The notes under the pieces were generated by a model. The model was not told the origin of the DNA and did no database searches. It saw only the letters and a program-made list of their open reading frames with translations. From NCBI GenBank assembly GCA_044353585.1, contig JBILBR010000010.1, forward strand, positions 15,353 through 79,352: a DNA stretch of 64,000 nt. Direction: 5' to 3'. The translations under genes and the position numbers were made by a program. Of this stretch, positions 41,572 through 64,000 are shown one piece after another. This DNA comes from Crocinitomicaceae bacterium. GTDB lineage: Bacteria > Bacteroidota > Bacteroidia > Flavobacteriales_D > Crocinitomicaceae. The first letter of the stretch is position 1. The number at the start of each line of letters is the position of its first letter.

Positions 41572-41714
41572 GCAAGTTAAACAAACATAGCTGTTCAAAG
41601 CAGGCTGACCATCTAATGTGACAAACAAAAAATTGGAGACAAGAAAACCACTATAAAAACAGGGAGTATTCTGAAAATCCATAAGAGTAGGAACAAAATT
41701 AAATCTTAAATAAA

Positions 41715-60979: not shown

Positions 60980-61423
60980 ATGGCTACAGTATTTGAGACT
61001 CGACTAATTGGTAACATTGGTAAAGATGCCATTGTTAAACCTATGGAACGTGGTATCATTGCGATCAACTTTCCGGTGGCACACAATAAAAATTGGCGTG
61101 ATAAAAAAACAGGGGCCTCAAAAACAAAAACCACCTGGGTAAATTGCACCATTTGGAAACGAGAAGGAAGCAATATGCGTATTGTGGACTTTTTAACCCG
61201 TGGCACTATGGTTGAATTGCTAGGCACCCCCTACGCAAAGGGATACATTTCCGAAGACGGAAATGTTCGAACTGAAATTAGGCTAAATGTGGCAGATACG
61301 AATATATTGAGACCCGCGCAGCGTATTGAAGGTGATCTTGATGACCTGATTGATCGTCACGATTTTTCAGGGGATGATGAAGGTGGTTTTGACGATTTCA
61401 ATATATCCGACGAAGATTTTTAA
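60980..61423 (+). CDS. ssb: single-stranded DNA-binding protein (divergent paralog type)
   Basis: 147 aa with an OB-fold pattern (LIGNIGKDAIV...TTWVNCTIWKR) and an acidic C-terminal tip DDFNISDEDF. Confidence 0.8.
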   Translation: MATVFETRLIGNIGKDAIVKPMERGIIAINFPVAHNKNWRDKKTGASKTKTTWVNCTIWKREGSNMRIVDFLTRGTMVELLGTPYAKGYISEDGNVRTEIRLNVADTNILRPAQRIEGDLDDLIDRHDFSGDDEGGFDDFNISDEDF

Positions 61424-61442
61424 AATTTTCTAATCAATTGAA

Positions 61443-61472
61443 TTGCAAAATTTAGAAAAGTTTCTATCTTTG
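61443..61472 (+). promoter_or_regulatory. Bacteroidota-type sigma-A promoter for the tRNA-Asn transcription unit
   Basis: TTG (61443-61445), exactly 19 nt, then TATCTTTG (61465-61472). The first repeat unit starts 13 nt downstream. Confidence 0.6.
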
Positions 61473-61484
61473 CAATCACAAAAT

Positions 61485-61686
61485 TCCTCCTTAGTCATGA
61501 CGAAGCACAGCTTGTCATGATGCCGACCGGAAGCGTCGGCACTCAGTTGGACAACTGATTTTAAGGTAGCAACATAAAAGGACATTCCTCCTTAGTCATG
61601 ACGAAGCGCAGCTTGTCATGATGCCGACCGGAAGCGTCGGCACTCAGTTGGACAACTGAATATAAGGTAGCAACATAGAAGGACAT
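61485..61686 (+). repeat. two tandem 101-bp tRNA-Asn-derived structured units (candidate ncRNA or leader elements)
   Basis: Units at 61485-61585 and 61586-61686 each begin with TCCTCCTTAG (tRNA nt 1-10). Each has a 47-nt two-hairpin insert followed by the D-arm segment CTCAGTTGG. They are in exact 101-bp register with the tRNA at 61687. Confidence 0.85.
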
Positions 61687-61760
61687 TCCTCCTTAGCTCA
61701 GTTGGTTAGAGCATCTGACTGTTAATCAGAGGGTCTCAGGTTCAAGTCCTGAAGGGGGAG
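61687..61760 (+). tRNA. tRNA-Asn (anticodon GTT)
   Basis: Manual cloverleaf. Acceptor TCCTCCT/AGGGGGA (one G-U), D arm GCTC-AGTTGGTTA-GAGC, anticodon arm TCTGA-CTGTTAA-TCAGA, T arm TCAGG-TTCAAGT-CCTGA, discriminator G. No encoded CCA. Confidence 0.93.
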
Positions 61761-61773
61761 CGCTGAAAATCAA

Positions 61774-61801
61774 AGGGTTACAGAAATGTAGCCCTTTTTT
61801 T
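61774..61801 (+). terminator. rho-independent terminator
   Basis: AGGGTTACA-GAAA-TGTAGCCCT followed by a T-run, 14 nt after the tRNA. Confidence 0.7.
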
Positions 61802-62004
61802 ATTTCTCTTTGTAACACAATTGTAACACTTCTCTTGAATAAGATGCACTCAAATTATCTTGTTTCAGATTTATTTCAACAAGCCTATTCAAAATCATTG
61901 GTGTAAAAATATTACTCTATGAACAAATCATTGGTTATAGAAAAATAGGAAATTTAAATAAAAAGCGACTAACAATATTATATTTGATTTATTAGTTTGG
62001 AGAT

Positions 62005-64000
62005 ATGACCATTGAACAATACATAAACACAATTAACCAACGATATAAACAGGGGAACGCAACTGAACATACCTTTCGGGGTGATTTAGTAAATCTTTTA
62101 GAAGCATTAGTTCCCGAAATAAAAGCAACCAATGAGCCTAAACGACAAGCGTGTGGTGCTCCCGATTATATTATATCAAAAGGGGAGATTCCTGTTGGTT
62201 TTATTGAAGCAAAAGATATAGGAGATAAAGACCTTGAAGGGAAAAAGAAAACAGGCAATCAAGAACAGTTCGACCGATATAAAACAGGTCTAAACAATCT
62301 AATATTCACTGATTACATTGATTTCCTTTTTTTTAGGGATGGAGTTTTTACAACTAAAATTTCAATAGGGAAAATCGAGAATGGTTCAATTTTGCCATTA
62401 TCAGAGCATTTTGAGCAATTTACGCAGTTATTCAAGAACTTTACAGAAACCATTTCTCAACCCATTAAATCGCCAACACGCTTGGCTGAAATGATGGCAG
62501 GGAAGGCTCGTTTAATGGCTGATGTTATTGAAAGAGCATTGAATGAAGATGATGAAAATGGAAATTTGTCAAATCTAAAAAGACAAATGTTGTCCTTTCA
62601 GAAAATGTTGATTTCCGATATTGATAATAAATCGTTTTCTGATTTATATGCTCAAACGATTGCTTATGGTATGTTCGCTGCTCGTTATCACGACCCTACC
62701 CTACCGACTTTTTCAAGGGATGAAGCAGTTAAGTTGATTCCAAAAAGTAATCCTTTTTTAAGAAAGTTATTCAAAGATATTGCCGATGAAGATTTAGATT
62801 TTCGATTGGTATGGATTGTTGATGAATTGGTTAGTGTATTCCTTGCCTCGGATGTGGCATCAATAATGAAGAATTTCGGTAAATCAACTAAACAGGAGGA
62901 CCCTGTTGTACATTTCTATGAAACATTTTTAGGAGCATACAACCCATTGTTACGCAAAGCAAGAGGAGTTTGGTACACCCCACAGCCTGTTGTAAATTTT
63001 ATTGTTCGAGCAGTTGATGATGTATTAAAAAGTGAGTTCGGTATTAAAGAAGGTCTTGCAGATTCGAGCAAGAGAAAAATTAAAGTTGATTATCAAGGAA
63101 AGAAAATTGAAAAGGAAGTTCATCAAGTGCAGGTATTAGACCCCGCAACAGGAACAGGAACTTTTCTTGCCGAAACAATCAAGCATATCCATAAAAAATA
63201 TGAAGGTTTAGGTGGTATATGGAGTAAATATGTCGAAGATGACCTAATACCAAGAATAAATGGATTTGAGTTGCTAATGGCTTCTTATGCGATGGCACAC
63301 CTCAAATTGGATATGTTACTTACTGATACAGGTTATGTTCCAACGAAAGACCAACGATTAAAGGTTTTCTTGACAAATTCATTGGAAGAACCACACGCCG
63401 ATTCGGGAACTTTATGGGGAAATCTACTCTCTGATGAGGCAGACCAAGCAAATGAAGTGAAAAGAGAAACACCCGTGATGTGCATAATTGGAAACCCTCC
63501 TTACAGTGGTGAAAGTGCCAACAAAGGAGAGTGGATAATGAAGTTGATGGAAGATTATAAAAAAGAACCCGAAGGGCTTCAAAAACTTCAAGAAAGAAAT
63601 CCAAAATGGATTAATGATGACTATGTGAAATTTCTTCGTTACGGACAACATTATATTGAAAAGAATGGACAAGGTGTTTTAGCATTTATTAATCCACACG
63701 GATTTTTAGATAATCCAACTTTTAGGGGTATGCGTTGGCATCTGTTAAAAACTTACGACAAGATTTATACTATTGACCTTCACGGAAATAGCAAGAAGAA
63801 AGAAACTGCACCCGATGGAAGTGCTGATGTCAATGTTTTCGATATTATGCAAGGTGTTTCAATTAATATTTTCATTAAAACAGGAAAGAAAAAAGCAAAT
63901 GAATTAGGCAAAGTATTTCATTTTGATTTGTACGGGAAAAGAGATTTTAAATATGATTTTTTGAGTAAAAACTCAATAAAAACGGTTGCATTTAAAGAAC
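62005..64000 (+). CDS. type IIG restriction-modification enzyme (N-terminal PD-ExK nuclease fused to gamma-class N6-adenine DNA methyltransferase), 5' part; runs off the window
   Basis: Own translation from the ATG at 62005 has no stop to position 64000 and is not in the ORF track. Motifs: MTIEQYINTINQRYKQGNATEHTFRGDL; PDYIIS...GFIEAKD (PD-ExK); VLDPATGTGTFL (motif I); IIGNPPYSG (motif IV). Confidence 0.82.
   Translation, partial: MTIEQYINTINQRYKQGNATEHTFRGDLVNLLEALVPEIKATNEPKRQACGAPDYIISKGEIPVGFIEAKDIGDKDLEGKKKTGNQEQFDRYKTGLNNLIFTDYIDFLFFRDGVFTTKISIGKIENGSILPLSEHFEQFTQLFKNFTETISQPIKSPTRLAEMMAGKARLMADVIERALNEDDENGNLSNLKRQMLSFQKMLISDIDNKSFSDLYAQTIAYGMFAARYHDPTLPTFSRDEAVKLIPKSNPFLRKLFKDIADEDLDFRLVWIVDELVSVFLASDVASIMKNFGKSTKQEDPVVHFYETFLGAYNPLLRKARGVWYTPQPVVNFIVRAVDDVLKSEFGIKEGLADSSKRKIKVDYQGKKIEKEVHQVQVLDPATGTGTFLAETIKHIHKKYEGLGGIWSKYVEDDLIPRINGFELLMASYAMAHLKLDMLLTDTGYVPTKDQRLKVFLTNSLEEPHADSGTLWGNLLSDEADQANEVKRETPVMCIIGNPPYSGESANKGEWIMKLMEDYKKEPEGLQKLQERNPKWINDDYVKFLRYGQHYIEKNGQGVLAFINPHGFLDNPTFRGMRWHLLKTYDKIYTIDLHGNSKKKETAPDGSADVNVFDIMQGVSINIFIKTGKKKANELGKVFHFDLYGKRDFKYDFLSKNSIKTVAFKE

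Follow-up and report, generated by a model that had tools for sequence, protein, structure and literature searches.

Tandem structured units in the 5' leader of tRNA-Asn(GTT) of freshwater Flavobacteriales: a tentative case for a cis-acting module of the tRNA precursor

What could a pair of 101-nucleotide (nt) direct repeats be doing between the promoter of a tRNA gene and the tRNA itself? The repeats, which we call units, lie upstream of tRNA-Asn(GTT) in a 64,000-nt stretch of a Crocinitomicaceae genome (assembly GCA_044353585.1, contig JBILBR010000010.1), hereafter the window, and each begins with a copy of the first 10 nt of the tRNA. We find that they belong to a lineage-specific family of structured modules of ~100 nt that occupies the tRNA-Asn(GTT) 5' leader of freshwater Flavobacteriales/Crocinitomicaceae. 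The units share one anatomy, are restricted to this single locus, are polymorphic in copy number and carry a distinctive pattern of conservation. We tentatively propose that they form a cis-acting structured leader module of pre-tRNA-Asn, one that would be co-transcribed with the tRNA, fold on itself, exchange strands and be removed by RNase P, and that is accessory and variable in copy number.

The arrangement of the locus is simple (Table 1). Tandem Repeats Finder reports a period of 101 nt with 2.1 copies and 96% matches over positions 61483-61696, a second repeat search finds the same pair, and ARAGORN, Rfam and a terminator scan place tRNA-Asn(GTT) and an intrinsic terminator behind the units, just as the first-pass annotation of this DNA had described. 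The 47-nt insert that the units carry occurs twice within the window, against an expectation of 0. The same annotation had placed a promoter of the form TTG-N19-TATCTTTG ahead of unit 1; its position holds, but the distance from the -7 box to unit 1 is 12 nt and not the 13 nt given. Bacteroidetes promoters have the consensus -33 TTG / -7 TAnnTTTG, which the promoter in the window fits; the sigma-70 scan that we ran does not cover this promoter type. It is the sole recognisable promoter for the units and the tRNA. No further TAnnTTTG box lies between them, and in alleles that lack units the same promoter stands immediately 5' of the tRNA, the junction being exact (...CACAAAA joined directly to TTCCTCCTTAGCTCAG). 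These two observations support the earlier placement of units and tRNA in one transcription unit. The tRNA starts exactly one period past unit 2, and this register, noted earlier, is real but unremarkable, because the last, partial copy of the tandem repeat is simply the start of the tRNA, its first 10-19 nt.

Each unit runs, in the order first described, from TCCTCCTTAG (tRNA nt 1-10, the pseudo-head) through the 47-nt insert, which forms two hairpins (hp1 and hp2), to CTCAGTTGG (tRNA nt 11-19) and then into a degenerate stretch, ACAACTGA...TAAGGTAGCAACATA...AGGACAT, in which ACAACTGA leads to TAAGG near the 3' part of the unit. The unit is partly tRNA-derived, as had been claimed, since it contains tRNA nt 1-10, nt 11-19 and a decayed 5' half of the anticodon arm. 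The first hairpin consists of 11 pairs with one bulged G, and its 3-nt loop is hypervariable. In the third hairpin (hp3) the 5' arm matches tRNA nt 12-17 and the 3' arm is the complement of that segment (an "anti-D"); at one locus (L044) the helix is kept with a U·G pair. Complements of the tRNA-identical segments follow in the more 3' part of the unit: AACUGA forms hp3, and UAAGG(U)AG together with AGGA forms helix P1, whose predicted 5' strand is unit nt 3-9. For 35 distinct units RNAalifold predicts a four-way junction of P1, hp1, hp2 and hp3, the same topology that had been drawn from the window pair. Each unit folds at -33.7 kcal/mol, with z = -3.4 to -3.5 relative to shuffled sequences. 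The two units of the window differ at four positions (in the hp1 loop, at two linker positions and at one position of the 3' tail), and none of these is in a stem, again as first noted. According to these predictions a unit can close on itself, masking its pseudo-5' part, an outcome that the order of transcription would favour.

Table 1. Features of the tRNA-Asn locus and its neighbours in the window.
Feature	Positions	Strand	Basis or remark
SSB gene	60980-61423	+	open reading frame list; upstream neighbour conserved in all related loci, with or without units
Bacteroidota-type promoter: TTG (61443-61445), 19-nt spacer, TATCTTTG (61465-61472)	61443-61472	+	read from sequence; shared by all orthologous loci
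Leader unit 1, 101 nt	61485-61585	+	Tandem Repeats Finder; covariance model R1, 121.8 bits; folding
Leader unit 2, 101 nt	61586-61686	+	Tandem Repeats Finder; R1, 118.6 bits; unit comparison
Pseudo-head TCCTCCTTAG (tRNA nt 1-10)	61485-61494 (unit 2: 61586-61595)	+	invariant in 35/35 distinct units
hp1: TCATGAC-G-AAGC / NNN / GCTT-GTCATGA	61495-61520 (unit 2: 61596-61621)	+	fold; alignment of units
hp2: TGCCGAC / CGGAAGC / GTCGGCA	61521-61541 (unit 2: 61622-61642)	+	7-nt loop nearly invariant
hp3: TCAGTT / GGAC / AACTGA	61543-61558 (unit 2: 61644-61659)	+	variable loop
Unit 3' region: anti-head TAAGGTAG (61562-61569), invariant single-stranded AGCAACATA (61568-61576), second anti-head AGGA (61579-61582)	61562-61582 (unit 2: 61663-61683)	+	unit alignment; RNAalifold
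tRNA-Asn, anticodon GTT, CCA not encoded	61687-61761	+	ARAGORN; Rfam RF00005, 69.5 bits
Intrinsic terminator, 11-pair stem (61772-61797), then T run	61772-61804	+	terminator scan
N6-adenine DNA methyltransferase / Eco57I- or MmeI-like open reading frame, start	62005-64000	+	Pfam N6_Mtase, Eco57I, MmeI_Mtase; continues beyond the window

Two resemblances of the unit to known RNA elements were considered and set aside. Within the invariant single-stranded stretch AGCAACAUA (61568-61576 and 61669-61677), AACA is the complement of U33-G34-U35-U36 in the anticodon loop of tRNA-Asn and resembles a T-box specifier, an Asn codon plus a 3' purine; a 4-nt match to an anticodon loop is without statistical weight and is probably due to chance. 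A hammerhead ribozyme was brought to mind by CUGAUGA in some degenerate copies; the canonical units have CUGAUUA or CUGAAUA, and none of the Rfam ribozyme models matches. In one lineage 12 nt at the 3' end of the tRNA-proximal last unit are duplicated internally (...AAAAGGACATTTATAAGGACA; loci L003:3506-3618, L042:376-488, L043, L047 and L062), which yields a second AGGA anti-head directly 5' of the tRNA. Finally, a 51-codon antisense open reading frame (ORF; 61430-61585, minus strand) overlaps the promoter and unit 1 of the window; we regard it as spurious, since its conservation across alleles with differing unit number is impossible.

Where else do the units occur? A scan of one genome per species with an exact pattern anchored on hp1 and hp2 returned nine species representatives, all metagenome-assembled (labelled Crocinitomicaceae, Flavobacteriales, Flavobacteriia or Bacteroidota), and a scan of metagenomes, for which the opposite end of the unit (hp3 plus TAAGGWAGCAACATA) served as anchor, gave 23 contigs; further orthologous loci were collected through homologs of the upstream SSB gene, which carry PF00436. 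In all of the scans the layout is SSB gene, promoter, a number of units and tRNA-Asn on one strand wherever the contig continues, and the hosts are many freshwater Flavobacteriales/Crocinitomicaceae lineages, drawn from lake metagenomes of JGI and ENA that include a genome bin from Lake Mendota (L001). The first-pass annotation had raised the prospect that the insert might prove to be a dispersed element of the repetitive extragenic palindromic (REP) kind, and this is not the case: in all nine loci of the genome scan and all 23 of the metagenome scan it is confined to the tRNA-Asn leader, the whole genomes of carriers having been scanned by exact pattern matches. The likeness to REP, bacterial interspersed mosaic (BIME) and miniature inverted-repeat transposable (MITE) elements, which are also short, GC-rich, hairpin-forming intergenic sequences, ends there, for such elements are scattered, with tens to hundreds of copies, while the units occupy a single locus per genome. 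Covariance model R1, built from the 35 distinct units, finds no third copy in the window with filters off and none in loci without units. Similarly, the distant SSB lineages P0065, P0083, P0097 and P0112 have no units and no diverged relatives that R1 detects, and they add no covariation. The hp2 pattern has 0 matches in viral contigs, blastn against phage and plasmid collections gives no match, and the 4227 models of Rfam 15 leave the units unmatched both at gathering thresholds over the whole window and at E<=10 over positions 61300-61900.

Copy number is strikingly variable. Among 68 complete leaders, 24 have no unit, nine have a degenerate unit alone and three a degenerate unit plus one; one unit is found in 15, one plus a short unit in two, two units in 12, two plus a short unit in one, and three units in two, counts that mix loci ascertained by their units with unbiased loci anchored on SSB and so are not frequencies. 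Two arrays cut by contig ends hold at least four units. Differences arise even at the level of strains: in one set of loci with identical SSB protein (P0028) one locus (L021) has two units and most others have 0, and in another (P0067) one locus (L011) has one unit and two (L010 and L012) have none. In the lineage near the window (P0021), one or two units are present in 10/10 sampled loci. The short units retain hp1 only and arose at least twice, through deletion between TGAT microhomologies. We note separately that many metagenome contigs stop inside, or immediately ahead of, the array or the tRNA (L021-L027, L037-L040, L083-L089); this fits assembly breaks from repeats and strain heterogeneity, and public assemblies probably under-report copy number.

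How strongly are the units constrained? We compared pairs of lineages whose SSB third-codon identity, at 0.34-0.45, is saturated. In these pairs the identity of spacer and promoter DNA is 0.57-0.85, that of the best-matching units 0.90-0.98 and that of the tRNA 0.93-1.0; the units are nearly as conserved as the tRNA. Substitutions are concentrated at a few positions, with 17 of 31 minimal events falling in 10 of 92 sites (binomial p = 2e-9): the hp1 loop takes eight events at three sites, the hp3 loop five at four sites and the linker between hp3 and P1 four at three sites. By contrast, the stems take 11 events at 55 sites, the hp2 loop two at seven sites, the conserved single-stranded sites of the 3' part (U83 plus CAACAUA) one at eight sites, and the head (tRNA nt 1-10) none at ten sites. 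The free sites are near saturation and the units therefore look old. Across orthologous loci the stems are conserved and do not show the random decay that the first-pass annotation had allowed for, and this pattern of sites is difficult to square with the recent horizontal spread of a neutral sequence.

Is it a folded strand on which selection acts, and if so which one? The canonical units say little, as the stems are invariant and 0 of 29 pairs is compensatory in the 35 units. A degenerate promoter-proximal unit that is fixed in one lineage (L016-18, L028-34, L051 and L059; R1 scores of 48-52 bits) is more informative. In this copy hp1 has undergone five stem substitutions and lost its bulged G, and 11/11 pairs are kept, through three G·U wobbles and one A-U to U-A change (chance probability 0.002-0.014). 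Likewise, hp3 is retained with a U·G pair, while hp2, its stem included, and the head have decayed. Folded as RNA, the copy has a predicted energy of -19.7 kcal/mol on the tRNA-sense strand and of -11.0 on the antisense strand. In addition, its changes fall at 2/28 sites of the 3' part (the hp3 stems and the anti-head, through AGCAACATA/AGCAACAUA) against 19/54 sites of the 5' part (p = 0.007). In our reading these observations speak with moderate weight for selection that acts on the tRNA-sense strand in a folded, single-stranded form; the strand under selection might also be single-stranded DNA of that sense.

We propose the following scheme for the origin and action of the module. The units most probably go back to a partial tandem duplication in which a promoter-proximal piece of the gene was copied, comprising tRNA nt 1-19, the now-decayed 5' half of the anticodon arm and ~20 nt of the old leader, and hp1 and hp2 would have been inserted between tRNA nt 10 and 11. 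Transcribed from the single promoter together with the tRNA, the units would be part of pre-tRNA-Asn, which they would leave when RNase P cuts at tRNA nt +1. The complements within each unit could pair instead with the next head, including the genuine 5' end of the tRNA. We propose that the module would work in cis, influencing how pre-tRNA-Asn folds and how its 5' end matures; it may be an insulated domain of the leader, or it may swap strands and so slow or adjust processing. In nearest-neighbour folding of the whole precursor, the strand-swapped register lies 3.3-4.7 kcal/mol below the native one, and in this swapped register the first pseudo-head is predicted to pair with the tRNA 3' acceptor strand (P ~0.98). 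In the lineage with the degenerate unit, whose own head is lost and whose anti-head remains, the acceptor stem is predicted with a probability of 0.004. These predictions show a leader that appears built to interact with the 5' strand of the tRNA, and they lend interest to the invariance of an anti-head whose own head has gone. Purifying selection on the tRNA-sense strand would maintain the units, slippage or unequal recombination between repeats would shift their number, and alleles would pass between lineages through recombination at the hotspot that the locus forms.

Several points weigh against this proposal. Transcription of the units is deduced from the position of the promoter. The opposite strand of a canonical unit folds about equally well, and invariant canonical stems neither support nor contradict the fold. 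Stem transitions in the canonical units produce four G·U against two A·C (p = 0.34), and when the degenerate copy is included the figures are 8 and 2 (p = 0.055), which is weak; moreover, G·T is also tolerated in hairpins of single-stranded DNA of the same strand, and sites for a dimeric DNA-binding protein are likewise typified by invariant palindromic arms that flank a free centre. The strand-swap energies take no account of co-transcriptional order, tRNA tertiary structure or proteins. Any function of the units is dispensable, because 24 of the 68 complete leaders lack them. Finally, exchange between lineages clearly takes place and contributes to the apparent conservation, because identical units occur in very different flanks and the alleles of the tRNA T-stem are patchy. 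For example, L007 and L048 have one unit each, with the same sequence as unit 2 of the window, and their SSB genes differ from that of the window at 83-84/444 nt. Even between the window and L058, whose SSB genes are different at only 6/444 positions, the hp1 loop is not the same. The T-stem of tRNA-Asn (window 61735-61751) exists across loci L001-L099 as two alleles, TCAGG/CCTGA and GCTGG/CCAGC, separated by a double compensatory difference, and these alleles and several types of terminator are distributed patchily relative to the SSB phylogeny, which indicates recombination breakpoints inside or beside the tRNA gene.

Of the alternatives to a cis-acting module, the one that we consider a possible but distinctly less probable explanation is that the leader gives rise to a trans-acting small RNA, a 5' external transcribed spacer (5'ETS) RNA. 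One or more units would be released by RNase P, possibly with the help of an endonuclease that cuts at A/U-rich single strands, AGCAACAUA and the hp2 loop CGGAAGC would bind an mRNA, another RNA or a protein, and copy number would set the dose. The conservation described above speaks for such an RNA as much as for a cis-acting module, and a trans-acting RNA would account for two invariant unpaired stretches that pairing within the unit leaves unexplained; stable hairpins and a strong tRNA promoter would favour its accumulation. Regulatory RNAs derived from tRNA spacers have a precedent in the E. coli sponge 3'ETS-leuZ, which is likewise a non-tRNA segment on a tRNA promoter, freed by nucleases and conserved beyond neutral spacer, properties that we infer for the units. 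The units differ from 3'ETS-leuZ in that they are a 5' leader and not a 3' or internal spacer, are tandem, variable in copy number and often absent, and carry the 5' end of their own tRNA together with its complement. Their frequent absence among strains of the same species speaks against a core regulator, hp2 has decayed, stem included, in the degenerate copy, and no target or partner of the units was identified, the 64-kb window being too small for a meaningful complementarity search.

A second alternative draws in part on what lies downstream of the tRNA. Beyond the terminator, the window and its relatives variously carry methyltransferase, GIY-YIG, DUF433/PIN, KilA-N, integrase or toxin-antitoxin genes, or none. 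In many of them a small GIY-YIG gene (93-109 amino acids, catalytic domain only) directly follows the tRNA-Asn terminator (for example L010:3081-3560 and L019:2580-3420, as well as L016, L017, L011 and L013); the window has none. These genes occur in cassettes of tandem modules of the form tRNA or tRNA'-terminator-GIY-YIG, joined at tRNA nt 7/8. The last 12-13 codons of the GIY-YIG ORF (ending in LAQLVRVPHMRD and a stop) are encoded by a copy of tRNA-Asn that starts at nt 7/8 and in which the anticodon arm has a hairpin (TCCCGCACATGCGGGA) in place of its 5' half; additional hairpins occur in the variable or T region of some copies. Hairpin-interrupted tRNA-Asn fragments thus lie on both sides of the gene in this clade. 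An NCBIfam scan of the small GIY-YIG proteins found no family match, and Rfam on the GIY-YIG/tRNA' region of L019 found nothing but a sub-threshold tRNA match on the pseudo-copy. The cassette looks like a homing-type element landing at a tRNA gene. In the window itself the methyltransferase ORF, which begins 200 nt past the tRNA terminator and has an N-terminal ...GAPDYII... motif of nuclease-like appearance, probably represents an island with a type IIG-like restriction-modification system, sited at the tRNA-Asn hotspot; L045 has the same post-terminator sequence. Elsewhere in the window, at 41628-41697 (plus strand), Rfam reports a DUF805 RNA motif (RF03081) with 64 bits against a gathering score of 51.1.

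Could the units then be a selfish or neutral DNA repeat, a scar of recombination or double-strand-break repair in a mobile-DNA hotspot formed by a tRNA gene? Such a repeat would be multiplied by slippage or unequal crossing-over and spread by homologous recombination or GIY-YIG co-conversion, and the similarity of units across species would be a sign of recent transfer rather than of function. We regard this as doubtful, although much about the locus is in keeping with it. Presence and copy number vary among strains with identical SSB, unit-free alleles are exact, identical units stand in different backgrounds, the T-stem and terminator alleles are mosaic, the short units arose repeatedly by microhomology deletion, and hairpin-interrupted tRNA-Asn fragments and tandem GIY-YIG modules lie downstream in many relatives. 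In T-even phages, the GIY-YIG homing endonuclease SegB drives segmental amplification around tRNA genes (PMC13096335), which offers a precedent: there as here (in relatives of the window) a tRNA gene has a GIY-YIG neighbour, amplified segments are joined in or near the tRNA, and copy number varies among strains. The difference is that SegB amplifies whole tRNA genes plus segB in a phage, whereas the units are a leader fragment on a bacterial chromosome and show conservation that resembles the effect of selection. The pattern of variation is a difficulty for a neutral repeat. Near-saturated free sites stand beside invariant stems and an invariant hp2 loop, and such non-uniform variation argues against neutrality, since after a recent spread one would expect few differences anywhere, and in neutral DNA of great age decay throughout. 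The degenerate copy, moreover, keeps the pairing of hp1 and hp3 through wobble and compensatory changes; a downstream GIY-YIG gene is about as common in loci with units (10/35) as in those without (9/33); and the phage, plasmid and viral collections hold no match. The earlier suggestion that the units are scars of recombination may describe how they originated, but it leaves a conservation near the level of the tRNA unexplained. Attachment repeats of an integrative element were rejected: the repeated part is the 5' and not the 3' end of the tRNA, the copies are 101 nt apart, and there is no cargo.

A stronger form of the cis-acting module makes it a true riboregulator made from the 5' end of a tRNA, in which strand exchange between a pseudo-5'-half and an anti-5'-half would gate maturation by RNase P, and copy number would serve as a heritable, fast dial. 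We consider this unlikely in so specific a form. In a further version the module may partner the small GIY-YIG nucleases as a guide or decoy RNA for homing directed to tRNA genes.

It is improbable that hp1-hp3 are palindromic operators or recombinase core sites that act in duplex DNA, repressing or roadblocking transcription of tRNA-Asn or directing site-specific recombination. The canonical unit would suit this role, being equally palindromic on both strands, with arms that are invariant without compensatory changes and with free centres in hp1 (3 nt) and hp3 (4 nt), the classic pattern for a dimeric binder. Several points speak against it: the two arms of hp1 are unequal, the left one having an additional conserved G; long non-palindromic invariant stretches (the head and TAAGGTAGCAACATA) are left unexplained; and the arms of the degenerate hp1 have changed at five stem positions with pairing kept only in the G·U sense, changes that fit a folded single strand and not a sequence-specific duplex site. 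Nor is any candidate binding protein consistently linked to the units, the downstream genes being variable.

The first-pass annotation had listed among several options that the units are tRNA-like small RNAs, or tRNA pseudogenes with an intron-like insert, and neither description finds support. A true tRNA mimic or pseudogene, from which RNase P and RNase Z would excise unit-length RNAs, is highly unlikely in spite of a cloverleaf-like topology in which a 7-bp P1 is followed by three arms ordered as D, anticodon and T, of an hp2 with a 7-bp stem and a 7-nt loop, and of the fact that every unit begins with the first 10 nt of the tRNA in the same upstream context. ARAGORN detects no tRNA here besides the genuine one, and Rfam at E<=10 over 61300-61900 gives no tRNA match on the units. 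The T-loop is missing, the loop of hp3 being 4 nt long and variable; a discriminator-bearing 3' acceptor strand and the 3' half of a tRNA are absent as well; and P1 is built on nt 3-9 rather than on nt 1-7. Known introns of bacterial tRNAs are group I introns, of 200 nt or more, in the anticodon loop of an otherwise complete tRNA. Here the 47-nt insert lies at nt 10/11, outside the anticodon loop, and has no group I match in Rfam.

Still less probable is an antitoxin- or guide-like RNA that serves an unlinked partner, be it a type III antitoxin array or a guide or scaffold for GIY-YIG proteins. A promoter, tandem direct repeats of a structured RNA and a terminator do recall ToxI-type arrays, and the GIY-YIG proteins of ~100 amino acids found nearby in relatives lack a DNA-binding domain and have ORFs that end in the hairpin-bearing tRNA-Asn copy. 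ToxI-type units, however, are ~34-45 nt long and lie directly upstream of the gene for their own endoribonuclease toxin, whereas here the units measure 101 nt and precede a tRNA; no ToxN/AbiQ/CptN/TenpN-like toxin gene is adjacent downstream, where the next gene is tRNA-Asn and what follows varies. In fact, no toxin or nuclease gene is consistently adjacent (in the window a methyltransferase is found there), the units show no association with the presence of GIY-YIG genes, and the tRNA-identical segments are predicted to be paired and not exposed.

Finally, a leader peptide, in the form of a 13-codon ORF in each unit (ATGATGCCG...GACAACTGA, ending Asn-stop) that would couple the supply of tRNA-Asn to transcription or processing, is scarcely credible, for although the ORF occurs in every full unit and is open in the degenerate copy (MMRKVSLRTQLDD followed by a stop), its start codons lie inside the 3' arm of hp1 and at the junction of hp1 with hp2, coding does not explain the symmetric conservation of both hairpin arms, the short units destroy the ORF and yet persist, changes in the hp2 and hp3 loops are non-synonymous, and we know of no translated leader ahead of a tRNA gene.

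If the units are indeed a cis-acting module of pre-tRNA-Asn, what are they most like? By analogy they would work most like hairpin RNAs that are derived from tRNA spacers or linked to tRNAs, with a resemblance to type III antitoxin arrays that is superficial. Besides 3'ETS-leuZ, the tRNA-microRNA-encoded RNAs of murine gammaherpesvirus 68 and the dicistrons of tRNA and small nucleolar RNA in plants combine a tRNA module and stable hairpins in one transcript that uses tRNA signals. In those viral and plant RNAs the hairpins lie 3' of the tRNA module and are processed by RNase Z or Dicer, whereas in the units the hairpins precede a genuine bacterial tRNA and are embedded in a copy of its 5' end, which they split. 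A literature search for tRNA-leader tandem repeats or GIY-YIG/tRNA-fragment elements in Bacteroidota found nothing relevant besides the SegB papers. The units probably represent an undescribed structured RNA co-transcribed with a tRNA, and their unusual features are the tandem repetition, the design in which a pseudo-5'-half is combined with an anti-5'-half, and presence or absence at the level of strains.

Bacterial tRNA leaders are usually seen as short and disposable, while here a leader of ~100 nt per unit is conserved nearly to the level of the tRNA and is nonetheless accessory. If the units act in cis, they would be one of few leaders to control tRNA folding or RNase P processing by means of a copied tRNA 5' end and its complement, and thus a genetic dial on the supply of a single tRNA. 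If they act in trans, they would constitute a new family of small RNAs in abundant, uncultured freshwater Flavobacteriales. In either case the tRNA-Asn gene emerges as a platform for repeated rearrangement, with leader repeats upstream and GIY-YIG cassettes and genomic islands downstream.

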